A stretch of DNA of 64,000 bases, from the NCBI GenBank assembly GCA_017482495.1, contig JAFUMU010000083.1, positions 3,342-67,341 of the forward strand. The letters run 5' to 3'. A program made the position numbers and the translations under genes. Origin of the DNA: Clostridia bacterium. Its GTDB lineage: Bacteria; Bacillota; Clostridia; Oscillospirales; CAG-272. The notes below the pieces were generated by a model. The model was not told the origin of the DNA. It made no database searches and worked only from the letters and a program-made list of their open reading frames with translations. This document shows, one piece after another, positions 4,958 to 48,087 of the stretch (position 1 is the stretch's first letter; each line of letters starts with the position of its first letter).

Positions 4958-5181
4958 ATTCCCTCCACAGTTACTAATTTTCTATCATAGTATAACACAT
5001 CTTTGTTAATAAATAAAGAAGAAAATTATTTTTTGCAAACTTTTAACTTTACTGTTGTTTCTGAAATATATTTAGTGTATAATCTTTCATATCTTATTTT
5101 TTAGTTCTCCGGAAAGGGTGTGTTATGCCCTCTCTTTCACAGAGATGTCATAACACAATAAATATATCAAGGACATATACT

Positions 5182-6436: not shown

Positions 6437-6495
6437 TGCAGGGAGGCTTTTTAAGGAAAAGCCCCCTGCACCCCCAAAACCTTTTCGGATAAAAT
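6437..6495 (+). repeat. Solo L module of the intergenic repeat family
   Basis: TGCAGGGAGGCTTTTTAAGGAAAAGCCCCCTGCA hairpin followed by CCCCCAAAACCTTTTCGGATAA. Same as the left ends of the copies at 27045, 37101 and 43748. Confidence 0.75.
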
Positions 6496-6575: not shown

Positions 6576-6604
6576 TTGACCAAATCAATAACATATGGTA
6601 TAAT
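6576..6604 (+). promoter_or_regulatory. Sigma-A type promoter
   Basis: TTGACC (6576-6581), 17 bp spacer, TATAAT (6599-6604). Confidence 0.7.
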
Positions 6605-6610
6605 ATTACG

Positions 6611-6682
6611 ACTGAACAGGCAGCGGCAAGTCCGCGAAGCCGGGTCTTACAAGACAACAGATACGCATCTGTGGGACAGTAC
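6611..6682 (+). promoter_or_regulatory. NiCo (czcD-type) riboswitch aptamer
   Basis: ACUGAACAGGCA..GAAGCCGGGUC..GACAACAGAU..AUCUGUGGGACAGU matches my recollection of the conserved NiCo junction nucleotides. P1 is ACUG/CAGU and three hairpins lie inside. It sits upstream of a CDF transporter. Confidence 0.7.
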
Positions 6683-13161: not shown

Positions 13162-14304
13162 ATGACTAAGATAGATATTTTCTCAGGCTTTCTCGGAGCA
13201 GGCAAGACCACTCTTATAAAGAAGCTTATTTCCGAAGCATACAAGGGCGAAAAGCTTGTTCTTATTGAAAACGAATTTGGTGAGATCGGCGTTGACGCAG
13301 GATTTCTTACCGACGCAGGTATCAACATCACAGAAATGAACTCAGGATGTATATGCTGCTCTCTTGTGGGAGACTTCAGTCAGGCACTTAAAAAGGTCAT
13401 AGCAGAATATGCTCCCGACAGGATCCTCATCGAACCCTCCGGAGTCGGCAAGCTTTCCGACGTTATGGCGGCTGTTAAGGGTAGCGCAGAGGGTGCGGAG
13501 CTTTCTGCGGCGGTAACAGTTGTTGACGCTAAAAAATGCAGAATGTATATGAAGAATTTCGGTGAATTTTTCAACAATCAGGTTGAAAATGCAACCACCA
13601 TCGTCCTCAGCCATACCAAGGGACTTTCAGAGGATAAGCTGAACCGTGCAATAGAAATGATCAGAGAGCACAATGCAAAGGCAAGCCTTGTTACAACTGA
13701 GTGGGACGAAATAAGCGGCGCTGATATTCTATCTGTTATTGACGGCACAGATTCCCTTGAAGCAGAGCTTCACAAGCTGGAGGAGGAGGCTGTTTGTCCC
13801 GAATGCGGTCACCATCACGGCCCTCATCATCACCACGATGAAAGCTGCGACTGTCACGAGCATCATCACGACCATCACCATCACGATGAGGGCTGCGACT
13901 GTCATGAGCATCATCACGACCATCACCACCACGATGAGGGCTGCGACTGTCATGAGCATGAACATCATCACCATCATCATGACGAAGAATGCTCCTGCGG
14001 ATGCGGCGGTCACGGTCACCATCATCACCATGCAGACGAGGTGTTCTCAAGCTGGGGAATGGACGGCACACGCAAGTATACAAAAGAAGAGATCGAAAAA
14101 GCTCTTCACGAGATAGAAAACGAAGAAAAATACGGTATGGTTCTCAGAGCTAAGGGGATAGTTCCCTCCGACGGCTGCTTTATCCACTTCGACTATACCC
14201 CCGGCGAAGCAGATATAAGAGAGGGCAGTGCAGTTGCCGCAGGCAGACTTTGCGTTATCGGCTCAAATATCAAGGAAGATGCTCTGAGAGAGCTCTTTGC
14301 ATAA
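13162..14304 (+). CDS. COG0523 (CobW/HypB/UreG, G3E) GTPase metallochaperone with His/Cys-rich insert
   Basis: Walker A GFLGAGKTT, CxCC motif GCICCS and an EPSGVG switch. Carries a long HHHH/CDCHEHHH insert before the CobW C-terminal domain. Confidence 0.9.
   Translation: MTKIDIFSGFLGAGKTTLIKKLISEAYKGEKLVLIENEFGEIGVDAGFLTDAGINITEMNSGCICCSLVGDFSQALKKVIAEYAPDRILIEPSGVGKLSDVMAAVKGSAEGAELSAAVTVVDAKKCRMYMKNFGEFFNNQVENATTIVLSHTKGLSEDKLNRAIEMIREHNAKASLVTTEWDEISGADILSVIDGTDSLEAELHKLEEEAVCPECGHHHGPHHHHDESCDCHEHHHDHHHHDEGCDCHEHHHDHHHHDEGCDCHEHEHHHHHHDEECSCGCGGHGHHHHHADEVFSSWGMDGTRKYTKEEIEKALHEIENEEKYGMVLRAKGIVPSDGCFIHFDYTPGEADIREGSAVAAGRLCVIGSNIKEDALRELFA
13837..13980 (+). repeat. In-frame 48-bp tandem repeat (3 units) coding DE[SG]CDCHEH[HE]H[DH]HHHH
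   Basis: Three consecutive near-identical 48-nt units are visible in the DNA and the protein. A fourth, degenerate unit (DEECSCGCGGHGHHHHH) follows. Confidence 0.85.
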
Positions 14305-18177: not shown

Positions 18178-18676
18178 AAGGGGGGACCTCTCTTTCGGAG
18201 AGCGGTCCCCCTTTTTTTATATGGGGGAACCTCTCTTTCGCAGAGAGGCTTCCCCCAAGCCCCCTCCAGAGAACCTATAACAAGGGTAAATGTTATTAGG
18301 TGCGCTGTATTTCGCGCATTCCCGCCGAGAGCTTTTTCGGTGGAACCTCTCTTTCGCAGAGAGGCTTCCCCCGTACCCCCTCCAGAGAACTTTGAATAAA
18401 GGTGAACGTAATATGATGCGCTGAACGAACGCGTCTTCCCGCCCCAATGCTGTGCATTGGGGATAAGGAAAAGAAAAGGATATTGAAAAAGGAAGCTCGT
18501 TTCCTTTTTCAATATTCTTTTGCTTTTCCGGGCGACCTGCGGTCGCTTACGGGAAGACTAACCTAACTTACGGTGCTCAGAATCCCATTTAGCCTTAGAA
18601 CATCGTAACCACCAAAATAAGCGTTATCTTAAAAGGTTTGGGGGCGTGGGGGCCTTTCCTTAAAAGGCGCCCCACA
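18178..18676 (-). repeat. Intergenic modular repeat, inverted orientation, with duplicated R module
   Basis: Reverse complement of the 27045 and 37101 copies. On the + strand it reads three GGGGGA.CTCTCTTTCG.AGAGAG..CCCCC hairpins, two R modules, the core (GTCTTCCCG...CGGGAAGAC) and the L hairpin at 18645-18675. Confidence 0.85.
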
Positions 18677-27012: not shown

Positions 27013-27037
27013 GGGGACTTTTAGTAAGTCCCCTTTT
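27013..27037 (+). terminator. Intrinsic terminator
   Basis: GGGGACTTTTAGTAAGTCCCC followed by a T-run. Confidence 0.7.
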
Positions 27038-27044
27038 GTTTTTT

Positions 27045-27380
27045 GCGGAGGACCTTTTAAGGAAAGGTCCCCCTCGCCCCTCCAAACCTTTTAGTGAAAC
27101 GCTTATTTTGGTGCCTGTGATATTATTCAGCTAAATGGGATTCGGAGCAGATTGCTGTATAAGTCTTCCCGTATGCGACCGCAGGTCGCCGGGAAAAGCA
27201 AAAGGATATAAAAAAAGGAAACGAGCTTCCTTTTTTTATATCCTTTTCTTTTCCTAATCCCAAATGCACAGCATTTGGGCGGGAAGACGCGACATTCAGC
27301 GCATCATATTACATTCACCCTTATTCAAAGTTCTCTGGGGGAGCACGAGGGGGACTCTCTCCGAAAGAGAGTCCCCCTCG
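27045..27380 (+). repeat. Intergenic modular repeat, single-unit copy (L - core - R)
   Basis: L hairpin 27045-27077. Closing helix GTCTTCCCG (27163-27171) / CGGGAAGAC (27280-27288) encloses three hairpins. R module ends with hairpin 27346-27380. Confidence 0.85.
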
Positions 27381-36078: not shown

Positions 36079-36097
36079 ACCATTGTAGCTACAAAAT

Positions 36098-36190
36098 TCA
36101 ATACAGGGGTGCTGTTACAGGACGGCTGAGACGGAAATTTTCCGAACCCTTTAACCTGATACGGGTAATTCCGGCGTAGGGAGCATTGTT
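36098..36190 (+). promoter_or_regulatory. TPP (THI-box) riboswitch
   Basis: CAGGGGUGC...GGCUGAGA...ACCCUUUAACCUGAUACGGGUAAUUCCGGCGUAGGGAGC matches the TPP aptamer consensus. Confidence 0.9.
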
Positions 36191-36223
36191 TTAAGGCACT
36201 ATTATATTATTTTGCTTTTTACT

Positions 36224-37100: not shown

Positions 37101-37608
37101 GCAAGGGGGATTTTAAGGAAATCCCCCCTGCACCCCCAAACCTTTTCGGATAACGCATGATTTGGTGGCTACGATATTCTATATCTAAACGGGATTCGGA
37201 GCAGTATAAGGTAGGTTAGTCTTCCCGTATGCGACCGTAGGTCGCTCGGAAAATTAAAAGGATATTGAAAAAGGAAACAAGCTTCCTTTTTCAATATCCT
37301 TTTCTTTTCCTTAACCCAAATGCAATAGCATTTGGGCGGGAAGACGCGCCCGTTCAGCGCACAATATTACATTCACCCCTATTCAAAGTTCTCTGGAAAG
37401 GGGTACGGGGGAGAACCTCTCTGCGAAAGAGAGGTTTCCCCCGAAAAAGCTTCGTGCGGGAATGCGCGAAATTCAGCGCACCTTATAAAGTTCACCCTTA
37501 TTCAAAGTTCTCTGAAAGGGGCGGCCGGGGTTCCCCAATGCGAGCTTGCCGAGCCTTGGGGGTTCACGGTACGGGGGAATCTCTCTCCGAAAGAGAGATT
37601 CCCCCCGC
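37101..37608 (+). repeat. Intergenic modular repeat, copy with duplicated R module
   Basis: L hairpin 37101-37131. Closing helix 37219-37227 / 37337-37345. First R module ends with hairpin 37407-37442; second R module ends with hairpin 37573-37607. Confidence 0.85.
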
Positions 37609-40025: not shown

Positions 40026-40227
40026 AGCGAAGACTGTATATCATAAAACGTGAATCTGCGGCAAGCCGCAGTGAAATTTGGGCTATCGCTCAAGTGAAGT
40101 ATTGCACCTGCGATGCAATATGAAGTTAATGTTCCAACTATCGTGCCGAAGGCATATATAATCGCTCGCAGAACGATATCATATCGAAGATATATCACCC
40201 GTTCCGCAGGGAACGGGTATCATTGAA

Positions 40228-40260: not shown

Positions 40261-40351
40261 TGGCGGAGAAGGAGAGATTCGAACTCTCGAACCCTTTTAC
40301 AGGTTACACGATTTCCAATCGTGCGCGCTCGACCAGCTACGCGACTTCTCC
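40261..40351 (-). tRNA. tRNA-Ser (anticodon GGA), CCA encoded
   Basis: Minus strand reads GGAGAAG..CACGA-UUGGAAA-UCGUG..long variable arm..GAGAG-UUCGAAU-CUCUC-CUUCUCC-G-CCA. The cloverleaf was folded by hand. Confidence 0.9.
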
Positions 40352-41526: not shown

Positions 41527-41760
41527 GTCGGATGATTCCGACGAAGCAGAACATGTCCGGTGAATTTCCTTTGTCAGAGAGCCGCTCCCCGTGCTGAAAG
41601 GGCGGTCAAACGAACCACTCGGGTACCATCTGCGGATATTATGAATACAAATTGAGTTAAACGCTCGGGTGGAACCGTGGGAATTTCTGTAGCAATGCAG
41701 TTTCTCACCCCGACAATCTTTTTTGTCGGCGCCGGGCTTTTTTCATTTTAACCGCGCCGA
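41527..41760 (+). promoter_or_regulatory. T-box leader (Thr specifier ACC)
   Basis: Has an AGAGA box (CAGAGAGCC), the specifier context GGUACCAUC and the T-box sequence AAACGCUCGGGUGGAACCGUGGGA. A terminator-like hairpin plus U-run follows (CCGACAA..TTGTCGG..CTTTTTT). It is upstream of thrS. Confidence 0.8.
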
Positions 41761-41790: not shown

Positions 41791-43725
41791 ATGAAGATCA
41801 GATTTACAATTGGCGCCGAGATCGAAAGTGCCGAAGTAAAAAGCGTTTATGACCTTGCGGCAGAAGCTTCTCTGATTTCAAGAGAGGTCATTGCGGCTAA
41901 GGTAAACGGCGAGGTAGTTGACCTCACAACTCCTGTTTCCTGTGATGCGGAGATCGAGCTGCTCACCTTTGAAAACGAGGAAGGACAGAAGGTATTCAAC
42001 CATACAGCAAGCCACATCCTTGCGCAGGCAGTCAAGCGTCTCTATCCCGATGCTAAGCTTACTATCGGACCTGCCATCGATAACGGCTTCTACTACGACT
42101 TTGATTCAGACGAAACATTTTCTTCAGAGGCTCTTGCCAAGATAGAGAAGGAAATGAAGAAGATCGTTCGCGAAAATCTTAAGCTTGAGAGATTTACTCT
42201 TCCCCGCGATGAGGCTATTAAATTTATGGAAGAAAAGGGCGAGCCCTATAAGGTTCAGCTTATTGCAAGAGTTCCCGAAGGAGAGGATATCTCCTTCTAC
42301 CGCCAGGGTGAATTTACAGACCTTTGCGCAGGTGCTCACCTCTTCTCAACAGCCGCGGTTAAGGCATTCAAGCTCCTTTCCTGCACAGGCGCTTATTGGG
42401 AGGGTAACAGCAAGAATAAGATGCTGCAGCGTATCTACGGTACAGCATTCCCCACAAAGGAGGCTCTCCAGGCTCACCTTACACAGCTTGAAGAAGCAAA
42501 GAAGCGCGACCACAACAAGCTTGGCCGCGAGCTTGAATATTTTACAACAGTAGACTACATCGGTCAGGGTCTTCCCATTCTTCTGCCCAAGGGCGCAAGA
42601 ATGATCCAGCTTCTTCAGCGCTTCGTTGAGGATGAGGAGCAGAAGAGAGGCTATCTCCTTACCAAAACTCCTCTTATGGCAAAGAGAGATCTTTATAAGA
42701 TCTCAGGTCACTGGGATCACTACCGCGACAGTATGTTCATCCTTGGCGATCCCGACGATGAAACAAAGGAATGCTTTGCGCTCCGTCCCATGACATGCCC
42801 CTTCCAGTATCAGGTATATCTCAACAGAAAGCGCTCCTACCGCGATCTGCCTATGCGTCTTGGCGAAACATCAACTCTTTTCCGTAACGAAGAATCAGGC
42901 GAGATGCACGGACTTATCAGAGTTCGTCAGTTTACAATTTCCGAGGGTCACCTTGTTCTCCGTCCCGACCAGCTTGAAGAGGAGTTCAAAGGATGTCTGG
43001 AGCTTGCTAAGTATATGATGGATACTCTCGGACTTGCAGAGGACTGCACATACCGCTTCTCACAGTGGGATCCCAACAATACAGAAAAGTACGAGGGTAC
43101 AGCCGAGCAGTGGGACGAGGCTCAGGGCATTATGAAGAAGATCCTCGATAACCTTGGGGTTGACTACAAGATCGGTATCGACGAAGCAGCATTCTACGGA
43201 CCTAAGCTTGATATCCAGATCAAGAACGTACACGGCAAGGAGGATACACTTATCACTATCCAGATCGATATGCTTCTTGCAAAGAAGTTCGGCATGGAAT
43301 ATACAGATTCCGACAACACTCAGAAAACTCCCTATATCATCCACCGCACAAGCCTTGGATGCTACGAGAGAACTCTTGCTCTTCTTATAGAAAAATATGC
43401 AGGTGCAATGCCTCTTTGGCTCTCACCTACTCAGGTTACAGTTCTCCCCGTTTCCAATCTCTTTGAGGACTACGCTAAGAAGGTTGCAGACAAGCTTGAG
43501 GCTATCGGCATCAGAGTTGAGTGCGACACACGTAACGAAAAGATCGGCTACAGAGTCCGCGAGGCTCAGCTTTCCAAGGTGCCTTATATGGTCATCGTTG
43601 GTGCTGATGAGCAGGACGCAGGTACTGTTTCCGTTCGTGCTCGTAAGGAAGGCGAGGGCGGAGTTATGTCCCTTGACGAATTTAAAGCGAAGCTCCTCCT
43701 TGAGGTGGCTACAAAGAAGCACTAA
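41791..43725 (+). CDS. thrS: Threonine--tRNA ligase
   Basis: 644 aa with a TGS domain, an editing domain (HTASHILAQAV), class II core motifs and an anticodon-binding domain. Confidence 0.97.
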   Translation: MKIRFTIGAEIESAEVKSVYDLAAEASLISREVIAAKVNGEVVDLTTPVSCDAEIELLTFENEEGQKVFNHTASHILAQAVKRLYPDAKLTIGPAIDNGFYYDFDSDETFSSEALAKIEKEMKKIVRENLKLERFTLPRDEAIKFMEEKGEPYKVQLIARVPEGEDISFYRQGEFTDLCAGAHLFSTAAVKAFKLLSCTGAYWEGNSKNKMLQRIYGTAFPTKEALQAHLTQLEEAKKRDHNKLGRELEYFTTVDYIGQGLPILLPKGARMIQLLQRFVEDEEQKRGYLLTKTPLMAKRDLYKISGHWDHYRDSMFILGDPDDETKECFALRPMTCPFQYQVYLNRKRSYRDLPMRLGETSTLFRNEESGEMHGLIRVRQFTISEGHLVLRPDQLEEEFKGCLELAKYMMDTLGLAEDCTYRFSQWDPNNTEKYEGTAEQWDEAQGIMKKILDNLGVDYKIGIDEAAFYGPKLDIQIKNVHGKEDTLITIQIDMLLAKKFGMEYTDSDNTQKTPYIIHRTSLGCYERTLALLIEKYAGAMPLWLSPTQVTVLPVSNLFEDYAKKVADKLEAIGIRVECDTRNEKIGYRVREAQLSKVPYMVIVGADEQDAGTVSVRARKEGEGGVMSLDEFKAKLLLEVATKKH

Positions 43726-43747
43726 TAGAATAGGAATAATAAAGAAA

Positions 43748-44057
43748 GGGGGCTTTTAAGAAAAGCCCCCCCTGCCTCATGAATATACATCGACTACATT
43801 ATCGTTCAACTAAAATGAATTTCGAAGTATTAGCCGTGTTAGTCCTCCCTGCAAATCCCCTGAATAATCCGGATAATTAAAAGGAGATGGATGTAAAAAC
43901 GGAAGCTTATTTCCGTTTTTACATCCATCTCCTTTTACATTGCCGCTTTGTGGCACATGAGAAGGCGCAAGGTTCTGCGCACATATATTATTACCTTCAT
44001 TTCAGGTTCTCTGAAGGGGGCTCGTGGAGAACTCTCTGCGAAAGAGAGTTCTCCACG
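43748..44057 (+). repeat. Divergent copy of the intergenic modular repeat
   Basis: Same order of elements: L hairpin GGGGGCTTTTAAGAAAAGCCCCC, long central hairpin, GCGCA/TGCGC hairpin, TTCAGGTTCTCTGAAGGGGG, and terminal hairpin 44023-44057. Stem sequences are largely different. Confidence 0.7.
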
Positions 44058-44072
44058 AAATAACTAACCTAA

Positions 44073-45485
44073 TCAACCGTTGATCTTCTCATGTATAGCC
44101 TTTGCCGCAGTTTTACCTGCACCCATTGCGAGTATAACAGTAGCGGCACCTGTAACAGCATCGCCGCCTGCGTAAACCCCGTCACGTGATGTGAGTCCGG
44201 TTTCTTCTTCAACAATGATACCACCGCGACGGTTAACATCAAGACCGTCCGTAGTGTCCTTGATAAGAGGATTGGGACTCGTACCGATAGACATGATAAC
44301 ACAGTCAACATCCAGTACAAACTCACTGCCTTCCTTAACGATAGGACTGCGGCGACCGCCCTCATCAGGCTCGCCAAGCTCCATTTCCACGCATTCCATT
44401 CCGCAAACGAAGCCATTCATGGGATCGCGCTTGTCTTCTTCGTTACGGTAGCCAAGTATTTTTGTCGGATTGGTAAGGAGCTTGAACTCGATACCCTCCT
44501 CCATGGCATGCTCTACCTCCTCGCGTCTTGCGGGAAGCTCGTCAAGAGAACGGCGATATACAATGTATACCTTGTCCGCACCGAGACGGAGAGCAGTTCT
44601 TGCAGCATCCATAGCAACGTTACCGCCGCCCACAACTGCAACCTTTTTCGCCTTCATAATAGGTGTTGCGCTGCCGTCTCTGTATGCCTTCATAAGATTG
44701 CTTCTTGTGAGGAATTCGTTTGCTGAGTAAACACCCTTAAGACTCTCGCCGGGAATACCCATAAATCTGGGCAGACCTGCGCCGCTGCCTACAAACACCG
44801 CCTCATAGCCTTCCTCAAAAAGCTCATCGATGGTCAGTGTCTTACCTATTATAATATTTGTCTTTATATCAACTCCGAGAGCGCGGAGAGTTTCCACTTC
44901 CTTTGCAACGATAGCCTTGGGAAGACGAAACTCGGGAATTCCGTACACAAGCACGCCTCCTGCTGTGTGAAGCGCCTCAAAAACAGTAACACTGTATCCA
45001 AGCTTTGCAAGGTCGCCTGCACAGGTAAGCCCTGAAGGACCGCTTCCTACCACTGCAACCTTGTGACCGTTAGCTTCGGGCTTAACAGGTGCTTCTGCGC
45101 AATATGTATTGTGCCAGTCGGCAACAAATCTCTCAAGTCTGCCTATACCTACAGGCTCGCCCTTGATACCTCTGATACATTTAGATTCGCACTGGGTTTC
45201 CTGAGGGCACACTCTTCCGCAAACTGCAGGAAGAGAGGACGACTGATTGATTATCTGATATGCACCCTCAAAATCTCCTTCCTTTACCTTTGAAATAAAT
45301 TCGGGAATATGGATCTTGACCGGGCATCCGTCCACACAAAGAGGCTTTTTGCAATTGAGACAGCGCGCCGCTTCGTCAAGAGCTGTCGCCTCGTCATATC
45401 CTGTTGCCACCTCGTCGAAGCAGGAAGCTCTCAGCTTTGCATCAAGCGTGGGCATAGGATTCTTAGTATTCTTCATATTTGCCAT
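44073..45485 (-). CDS. nfnB: NADPH-dependent oxidoreductase, glutamate synthase small-chain-like (NfnB type)
   Basis: Trimmed to MANMKNTK. Has two 4Fe-4S Cys motifs and GSGPSGL and GGGNVAMD dinucleotide folds. Paired with an NfnA-like gene. Confidence 0.8.
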   Translation of the reverse strand: MANMKNTKNPMPTLDAKLRASCFDEVATGYDEATALDEAARCLNCKKPLCVDGCPVKIHIPEFISKVKEGDFEGAYQIINQSSSLPAVCGRVCPQETQCESKCIRGIKGEPVGIGRLERFVADWHNTYCAEAPVKPEANGHKVAVVGSGPSGLTCAGDLAKLGYSVTVFEALHTAGGVLVYGIPEFRLPKAIVAKEVETLRALGVDIKTNIIIGKTLTIDELFEEGYEAVFVGSGAGLPRFMGIPGESLKGVYSANEFLTRSNLMKAYRDGSATPIMKAKKVAVVGGGNVAMDAARTALRLGADKVYIVYRRSLDELPARREEVEHAMEEGIEFKLLTNPTKILGYRNEEDKRDPMNGFVCGMECVEMELGEPDEGGRRSPIVKEGSEFVLDVDCVIMSIGTSPNPLIKDTTDGLDVNRRGGIIVEEETGLTSRDGVYAGGDAVTGAATVILAMGAGKTAAKAIHEKING

Positions 45486-47941: not shown

Positions 47942-48087
47942 GCAGGGAACCTATTAAGTATAGGTTTCCTGTCCTCAAACCTTTTGGTATAGGTGTCTTG
48001 TTGGTGTTTGCAGACATTGCTAAAAAGGTCAGAGAGACAGAGAACATAAGGTGGGGGAATCGCTCTTTTGCAGAGCGGTTCCCCCAC
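47942..48087 (+). repeat. Short form of the intergenic repeat (L module + terminal hairpin)
   Basis: GGGAACCTATTAAGTATAGGTTTCC followed by CTCAAACCTTTTGG. Ends with GTGGGGGAATCGCTCTTTTGCAGAGCGGTTCCCCCAC. Confidence 0.6.

Follow-up and report, generated by a model that had tools for sequence, protein, structure and literature searches.

A strongly diverged copy of a hairpin-rich intergenic repeat, with an apparently inverted core, downstream of thrS in an uncultured gut Clostridia bacterium

Sequence comparison showed the hairpin-rich segment that follows thrS to be a genuine copy of a species-specific intergenic repeat, but one that has diverged strongly and has been rearranged internally. 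This segment (D43, 43748-44057) was compared with three close copies, A37, B27 and C18, that are present in the same window, by which we mean the whole 64-kb stretch of DNA that was analysed. The repeat fills the gaps between convergent genes and probably supplies them with a two-way transcription terminator. The explanation that we favour, with moderate confidence, is that of a composite interspersed repeat in which a central two-way terminator would be combined with outer hairpins at the 3' ends of mRNAs, D43 being a variant with a flipped core.

D43 is situated in a 347-nt spacer (43726-44072) between thrS (41791-43725, + strand) and a convergent gene for a gltD-like NADPH glutamate synthase, the stop codon of which is at 44073. 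All hairpins and motifs that the initial annotation had listed between 43748 and 44057 were found in place. The copy starts 22 nt past the thrS stop codon with the L hairpin (43748-43770, + strand), in which GGGGGCTTTT and AAAAGCCCCC form 10 perfect pairs around AAG. On the - strand this hairpin is followed by TTTCTTTATTATT and was flagged as terminator-like. Next comes a C-rich stretch with the linker (43771-43841, + strand), which was collinear in the nhmmer alignment and carries the conserved motif TAAAATGAATTTCGAAG at 43811-43827 (+ strand). The core is enclosed by the two arms of a closing helix, GTCCTCCCT at 43842-43850 and TGAGAAGGC at 43958-43966 (both + strand), with the second of which the 3' module also starts; the corresponding arms of the close copies are GTCTTCCCG and CGGGAAGAC. 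The segment between the arms (43851-43957) is apparently inverted with respect to the family ends and is assigned to the - strand, as its reverse reading outscored the forward one. It contains the long hairpin (43879-43936), which consists of an A-tract, a 27-bp perfect stem and a T-tract and is terminator-like on either strand; its arms (43879-43904 and 43910-43936) form 27 Watson-Crick pairs with no mismatches. The small hairpin CATTGCC..GGCACATG (43938-43959, + strand) has 8 pairs and a bulge. The 3' module comprises the GCGCA..TGCGC hairpin (43965-43980, + strand), the stem CCTTCA/TGAAGG (43994-44017, + strand) with GTTCTCTG in its loop, the motif TTCAGGTTCTCTGAAGGGGG (44001-44020, + strand) and the terminal hairpin (about 44023-44057, + strand), which has 15 perfect pairs and ends 15 nt before the convergent stop codon of the gltD-like gene. 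Together, the L, long and terminal hairpins are perfect stems with 52 Watson-Crick pairs in total, and on either strand D43 folded far better than its dinucleotide shuffles (z = -12.8 and -12.5).

An nhmmer profile of the three close copies aligned with D43 end to end and in collinear order (profile positions 3-336 with 43748-44056; 78.6 bits, E=6.6e-24). Covariance models were built without D43: a 104-position model of the 3' module, based on five other modules, and a 276-position model of the middle, based on the three close copies. D43 matched both of them over the full length, with 73.0 bits (E=5.3e-15) and 43.0 bits (E=1.6e-9), respectively. In its 3' module we found the GCGC hairpin, the stem around the GTTCTCTG loop and the G5..C5 hairpin with CTCTCTNCGAAAGAGAG, and the pattern GTTCTCTG..CTCTCTNCGAAAGAGAG occurred five times in the window, while none was expected. 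An alignment of this structure-aware type had been proposed in the initial annotation as a check on the resemblance, and D43 scored well in it. As D43 was left out of the models, these scores identify it as a true family member and not a run of unrelated hairpins. Although the interior of D43 shares no more than 43-54% identity with the other copies and D43 lacks two of the family helices, a chance run of unrelated hairpins or terminators in a long intergenic region is an extremely improbable explanation of such an end-to-end match, of the two covariance model scores (E=5e-15 and 1.6e-9) and of the fivefold occurrence of the pattern.

The close copies were mutually 80-85% identical, and D43 was 60-64% identical to them overall. 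Its identity to the close copies was 75-88% in the L hairpin and 73-82% in the terminal hairpin, 65-75% in the remaining 3' module and 65-67% in the long hairpin, but 46-54% in the linker, 43-51% in the closing-helix and small-hairpin region and 43-52% in the region of the CCCAAATGC hairpin. The earlier description of D43 as a copy in which almost every stem differs in sequence was thus correct for the interior, but not for the L hairpin, the terminal hairpin and the inner CTCTCTGCGAAAGAGAG, which have largely the same sequence. The closing helix, which had not been found again earlier, does have its arms at the homologous place, but their pairing has decayed: between 43842-43850 and 43958-43966 there are 6 pairs in 9 positions, as compared to 9/9 in the close copies, which fits the failure to recognise the helix. 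The long hairpin had 27 of 28 pairs in this comparison, and the core as a whole fitted better in the reverse orientation. In the structure-aware alignment only 2 of 6 pairs were retained for the GCGACC/GGTCGC hairpin, which is lost in D43. The long-range helices between the linker and the 3' module, which belong to the rod-like fold of the close copies, had 13 of 25 pairs in D43 as opposed to 22-25 in those copies. A MAFFT alignment showed that the linker of D43 is without 18 nt present in the close copies (CTTTTCGGATAACGCATG); this deletion takes out the pairing partner of GTTCTCTGG. The proposal that the architecture had been kept by structural selection holds for the L, long and terminal hairpins, which are perfect with about 15 pairs changed on both sides, but does not extend to the GCGACC hairpin, the long-range helices and the closing helix. 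With its conserved ends, near-random interior and flawless stems, this single copy would more readily be explained as a member of a separate variant lineage than as an old copy in uniform decay. No second copy of the D43 type was found in the window, its extension of ~3.6 kb, the thrS and gltD loci of relatives or the genome, viral and metagenome collections searched.

The central ~100 nt of D43 matched the family better as the reverse complement, and this was observed with three methods. Pairwise scores of the core were 46-56 in reverse (z 13-17) and 31 in the forward orientation (z about 8). With the covariance model the reverse core scored 43.5 bits and aligned both the small and the long hairpin as well as part of the third, whereas the forward core scored 35.2 bits with the long hairpin only. 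With nhmmer the scores were 27.5 bits (E=1e-7) and 16.7 bits, respectively; the close copies gave 142-148 bits forward and 41-44 bits in reverse. When the core of D43 is read in reverse, its loop is GGAAATAAGCTTCC, the family loop being ggaaacgagcttcc, and CATTGCC..GGCACATG falls where the family has the GCGACC/GGTCGC hairpin. It appears that the core was flipped between its 9-nt inverted arms, or that the module was put together in the other orientation; with 8-11 bits in one copy, the signal is moderate. This shift in orientation was absent from the initial annotation.

The other copies in the window differ in the number of their modules. A37 (37105-37607, + strand) has a unit at 37105-37443, followed by a tandem second 3' module at 37457-37607, and lies between a ThiT-like gene and a DUF4867 gene. 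B27 (27047-27380, + strand) is found between an HD-domain gene, which retains a terminator of its own at 27013-27033, and an H+-pyrophosphatase gene. C18 (18179-18673, - strand), between tpiA and a hypothetical gene, consists of a unit (18338-18673) that is followed by another 3' module (18222-18324) and by a terminal hairpin, the third of this copy (~18180-18216). B27 and D43 thus have one 3' module each, A37 has two, and C18 has two and an extra hairpin. In addition, a solo L-hairpin module was detected 12 nt past a stop codon, upstream of a NiCo riboswitch (6441-6492, + strand; nhmmer 23.6 bits, E=3.5e-7), and a short mosaic variant at a convergent junction (47944-48086, + strand) has an L-like hairpin, CTCAAACCTTTT and then a terminal-type hairpin in the opposite orientation (48047-48086). 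The latter is the only opposite-orientation palindrome that was seen; the tandem 3' modules are direct repeats. Family modules were therefore found solo, in tandem and in either orientation.

The family is a set of modules, in which an L hairpin close behind a stop codon is followed by a linker and by a core within inverted arms of 9 nt; behind the core there are one to three 3' modules, and a G5..C5 hairpin closes each of these. The unit is ~335 nt long, with a G+C content of 42-57% and folding energies of -128 to -150 kcal/mol. The motif GTTCTCTG did not vary among the eight 3' modules, of which the tandem ones lack a 5' partner, and its conservation is hence not explained by pairing with the 5' linker. 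A protein-coding repeat was also considered and rejected because the reading frames are not conserved but shift between the copies; six-frame translations gave no match in the protein database.

Some further features of the window were recorded. A 43-nt hairpin-forming insert (GGGGTTCCCCAATGCGAGCTTGCCGAGCCTTGGGGGTTCACGG) interrupts the second 3' module of A37 at 37526-37568. It was also detected, with 83-86% identity, at L083 13903-13945 and L085 8437-8475, in two related genomes without the main family, and by this distribution we regard it as a separate small repeat that landed within the main one. The 3'-module model gave a weak match (23 bits) at 5061-5155 (+ strand) around the CTCTGTGAAAGAG hairpin, in a divergent spacer upstream of a methionine gamma-lyase gene, and the same weak match was also listed at L099 4451-4545 and L102 894-988; it may be a remnant or merely a similar hairpin. 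The NiCo riboswitch (6603-6681, + strand) is upstream of a cation-efflux gene, with the solo L-hairpin module between it and the preceding stop codon, and the ThiT-like transporter is preceded by a TPP riboswitch (36095-36199, + strand). The 642-nt spacer in front of thrS contains a weak match to a T-box leader (41532-41715, + strand; 28 bits, with a gathering score of 93) that could be a diverged T-box or chance. A match to Gut-1 RNA, barely over the gathering score (51.1 vs 50 bits), adjoins a tRNA gene (40151-40225 and 40264-40351, both - strand). A 48-nt tandem repeat (13800-13991) codes for a His/Asp/Cys-rich stretch in a gene for a CobW/HypB-type GTPase.

The elements were not evenly distributed over the spacers of the window. 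Based on a greedy ORF map with ~9 convergent junctions and 46 others, they were present at 5/9 convergent junctions and at 0/46 of the others (Fisher p=3.6e-5; p=3.7e-4 with the four full copies alone). The flanking genes are housekeeping genes. In six out of seven cases the L hairpin started 11-22 nt past a same-strand stop codon, and the last hairpin ended 15-29 nt short of the convergent stop codon, so that the spacers are nearly filled. Each of the four full copies has a long hairpin with a 21-27-bp stem between an A-tract and a T-tract, and a consensus scan flagged it as terminator-like on both strands; no further terminator-like site was found on the gene-proximal side in three of these four. 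The element-free convergent junctions of the window have classical bidirectional terminators of the A-tract/stem/T-tract type, e.g. AAAAACGGACGCCGCGGCGTCCGTTTTT. Promoter-like sites were limited to three weak ones on the - strand of D43, with none in A37, B27 or C18.

According to the explanation that we favour, the long hairpin with its A-tract and T-tract would terminate transcription from both convergent neighbours, and the outer G+C-rich hairpins could shield the 3' ends of the two mRNAs. D43 retains both ends and the terminator hairpin but has lost the secondary helices, and its core would have turned round between the inverted arms. Termination is less readily reconciled with the long (21-27 bp), A+T-rich stems and with the U-tracts of D43, which are just four U long; typical terminator stems are short and G+C-rich. 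A more far-reaching version, which we put forward tentatively and consider rather doubtful, is a self-spreading 'terminator cassette', i.e. a non-autonomous element with a bidirectional terminator as payload that lands behind stop codons and, at most convergent junctions of this genome, has taken the place of the native terminators; its core would flip by DNA inversion, and D43 would represent the flipped state. If the repeat does terminate transcription as we propose, more than half of the convergent gene pairs of this gut bacterium would depend for this on a copied repeat and not on locus-specific terminators, and the family would clearly illustrate how an element that is selfish or duplicated can turn into gene-end architecture.

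The window originates from an uncultured Clostridia/Oscillospiraceae-like MAG from animal gut; its ThrS is MBQ7836899.1, to which that of the nearest species representatives is 75-81% identical. The portion of this genome that was read amounts to ~68 kb, i.e. the 64-kb window and ~4 kb, or about 3% of a genome. For comparison, thrS loci were taken from 80 related species and from 8 close relatives, and gltD loci from 8 close relatives. Relatives with a ThrS of 87-95% identity had a plain intrinsic terminator after thrS and different downstream genes, and those with a GltD of 92-94% identity had a plain terminator after gltD and different neighbours. The two covariance models detected no copy in 197 kb from the close relatives and the short extension of the window's genome, the 3' model detected none in 572 kb from the 80 related species, and none was present in the ~3.6 kb extension of the window. 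The exact pattern GTTCTCTG..CTCTCTNCGAAAGAGAG, which fits both subtypes, had no match in viral contigs or in 185,579 species-representative genomes and one match in JGI metagenomes, a close-type copy cut by the contig end (L082, JAEIGA011629961.1, 894-1015). BLAST in distant mode gave no match for the D43 unit in plasmids and none for the A37 copy in phages. As judged from these searches, the repeat is confined to the present organism, an uncultured Oscillospiraceae-like gut bacterium.

The metagenomic element L082 is located ~110 nt upstream of a same-strand gene that by eye is response regulator-like; such elements are thus not always at a convergent junction. The L-hairpin module was also seen alone in one related genome. 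Close relatives carry a different family of hairpin repeats with GTAGGGGCGACCATCGGTCGTCC-like units, often several per spacer (L087 5206-5915, L091 10826-11180, L086 12240-12560, L084 12600-12640 and L093 3225-3700). The CGACC..GGTCG stem of these units resembles the GCGACC/GGTCGC core hairpin of the close copies that is missing in D43. L082 ends in the repeat, and many of the thrS and gltD contigs of relatives do not exceed 2-4 kb; assemblies of this group would thus seem to be broken routinely by such repeats, in the vicinity of which many contigs of relatives end. As repeats of this kind break metagenome assemblies and can pass for structured RNA genes, a family model is of use in the annotation of uncultured Oscillospiraceae.

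Several of these observations would also be expected of a non-autonomous transposable element moved in trans, either by cut-and-paste as in MITEs or by a single-strand Y1 transposase as in IS200/IS605 derivatives and in REP/BIME with RAYT. The end hairpins would then be recognition sites and the terminator would be incidental. Such an element would be in line with conserved ends and a diverged interior, with end hairpins that are G+C-rich and subterminal, with a dense and species-restricted occurrence (4 full copies in 64 kb and none in relatives) and with assemblies that break within the repeat; pneumococcal repeats and IS elements are likewise over-represented between convergent genes (PMC3049150). 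However, target-site duplications were absent from the flanks of the four copies, inverted repeats at the termini did not go beyond G5/C5, the G+C content (42-57%) is not that of an A+T-rich element, no transposase, integrase or reverse transcriptase was found among the ~57 ORFs of the window, and no pair of filled and empty sites was recovered. We consider transposition as the whole explanation unlikely. It is partly compatible with the terminator explanation, as an element could be both mobile and co-opted.

The changes within the stems were analysed for compensation. In the long hairpin of D43, ~10 pairs had changed on both sides in comparison to A37 and none was broken. In an alignment of seven 3' modules 96.6% of the cells were paired, as compared to 27-63% in slid controls, and 5 pairs (10 cells) had changed on both sides, which was reached by 0/500 shuffles; every double change counted there was in the outer stem of the terminal hairpin. 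The pairs were almost exclusively of the Watson-Crick type. In 28 hairpin instances of the family, 374 pairs were Watson-Crick and 4 were internal G-U pairs; of the mismatches, 2 were A-C and 2 were of other kinds. D43 alone had 60 Watson-Crick pairs and 1 G-U pair. The fold energies were approximately equal on both strands, for whole units as well as for single hairpins. Stems that vary freely but are almost without G-U point to palindromes that act on both strands, and not to an RNA of one strand. In our favoured explanation both DNA strands would be read, and the stems would accordingly pair on both; if both strands are transcribed and the stems must pair on each, or if they must pair as DNA, this would account for change by full Watson-Crick compensation only. 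If true, near-exclusive Watson-Crick compensation would be a simple sequence signature of hairpins that work on both strands. The asymmetry between G-U pairs and A-C mismatches was mixed, with three cases in favour of the reverse strand and the stem around the GTTCTCTG loop in favour of the forward strand. In this stem several U-G pairs are possible on the + strand only, and together with the invariant GTTCTCTG this is a hint of a strand-specific role, as RNA or in protein binding, outside the terminator idea.

A structured non-coding RNA gene, or a cis-acting RNA motif of one strand in the 3'-UTR, with D43 as a paralogue under selection for RNA structure, would explain the very low folding energies (z about -12.8), the covariation in the terminal hairpin and the invariant GTTCTCTG in a loop with a variable closing stem that has U-G pairs of the + strand only. 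It would also be in agreement with the long-range helix TAAAYGGG/CCCRTTCAG of the close copies, in which C-G, U-A and U-G pairs are seen. We consider it quite improbable, as the two strands are equal in fold energy, the stems are nearly free of G-U (4 in 378), the modules occur solo, in tandem and in either orientation, and the long-range helices and one hairpin have been lost in D43. Moreover, the three close copies are without a promoter-like site, congeners are without the family, and Rfam gave no family match over the repeat elements at any threshold, neither at the gathering score nor at E-value thresholds, where only spurious microRNA-hairpin matches far under threshold were obtained.

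We know of no similarity of the window repeat to IS ends, and to our knowledge sequence similarity to BOX would not be expected in Oscillospiraceae. The comparison with known systems is one of layout. Ordinary bidirectional terminators between convergent genes have an A-tract, a stem and a T-tract, giving a hairpin followed by U's on either strand (bioRxiv 10.1101/2022.10.23.513370). The long hairpin of the window repeat is of the same design, but its stem is far longer (21-27 bp) and A+T-rich, and it is inside a conserved repeat of ~300 nt that has been copied to several loci. The defining properties of MITEs are terminal inverted repeats, target-site duplications and a high A+T content; MITEs and Correia elements may contain terminators or processing sites with effects on neighbour genes (PMC3049150, PMC3184786). 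The window repeat is, like them, highly base-paired, non-coding, interspersed and under about 500 bp, but has none of these three defining properties.

With REP/BIME elements the window repeat shares extragenic G+C-rich palindromes, mosaic elements, species specificity and a position at 3' ends; its L and terminal hairpins are G5..C5 stems of 10-15 bp at 11-29 nt from stop codons, as is typical of REP. A REP/BIME system is recognised by a cognate RAYT flanked by palindromes and by >100 copies per genome. No gene for a RAYT (Y1 transposase) was found among the ~57 ORFs of the 64-kb window, and the window repeat also differs in that it has no regular alternation of palindromes, no established head of the GTAG type, longer hairpins and a host in another phylum. 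The REP/BIME elements of Proteobacteria are mobilised by RAYT and have been proposed to act as attenuators and stabilisers of mRNA, including between convergent genes (PMC2817692, PMC3116915; bioRxiv 10.64898/2026.03.23.713779).

The pneumococcal SPRITE repeats have been described as the third of the families of small interspersed repeats, which as a rule are under 200 bp. They are terminator-like, lie near the 3' ends of genes, are more strongly enriched between convergent genes than any other type of pneumococcal repeat and have been proposed to be co-opted as terminators (PMC3049150). By description, the window repeat is similarly terminator-like and located near gene 3' ends between convergent genes, but its terminator-like hairpin is just the centre of a composite of several modules. 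The pneumococcal BOX element (boxA-boxB(n)-boxC) is, like the window repeat, a composite hairpin-rich intergenic repeat of a Gram-positive host without coding capacity (PMC3049150). Both have fixed end modules and one module in variable tandem number (boxB(n) in BOX, 1-3 copies of the 3' module here), are confined to one species or its nearest relatives and are over-represented between convergent genes. Compared by description only, the window repeat differs from BOX in that the variable module is terminal and not internal, the unit is larger (~335 nt) and there is a central terminator-like hairpin that is bidirectional. By analogy of layout, we classify the family as a composite repeat of the REP/BOX/SPRITE-like type and thereby as another example of a well-known kind of bacterial repeat.
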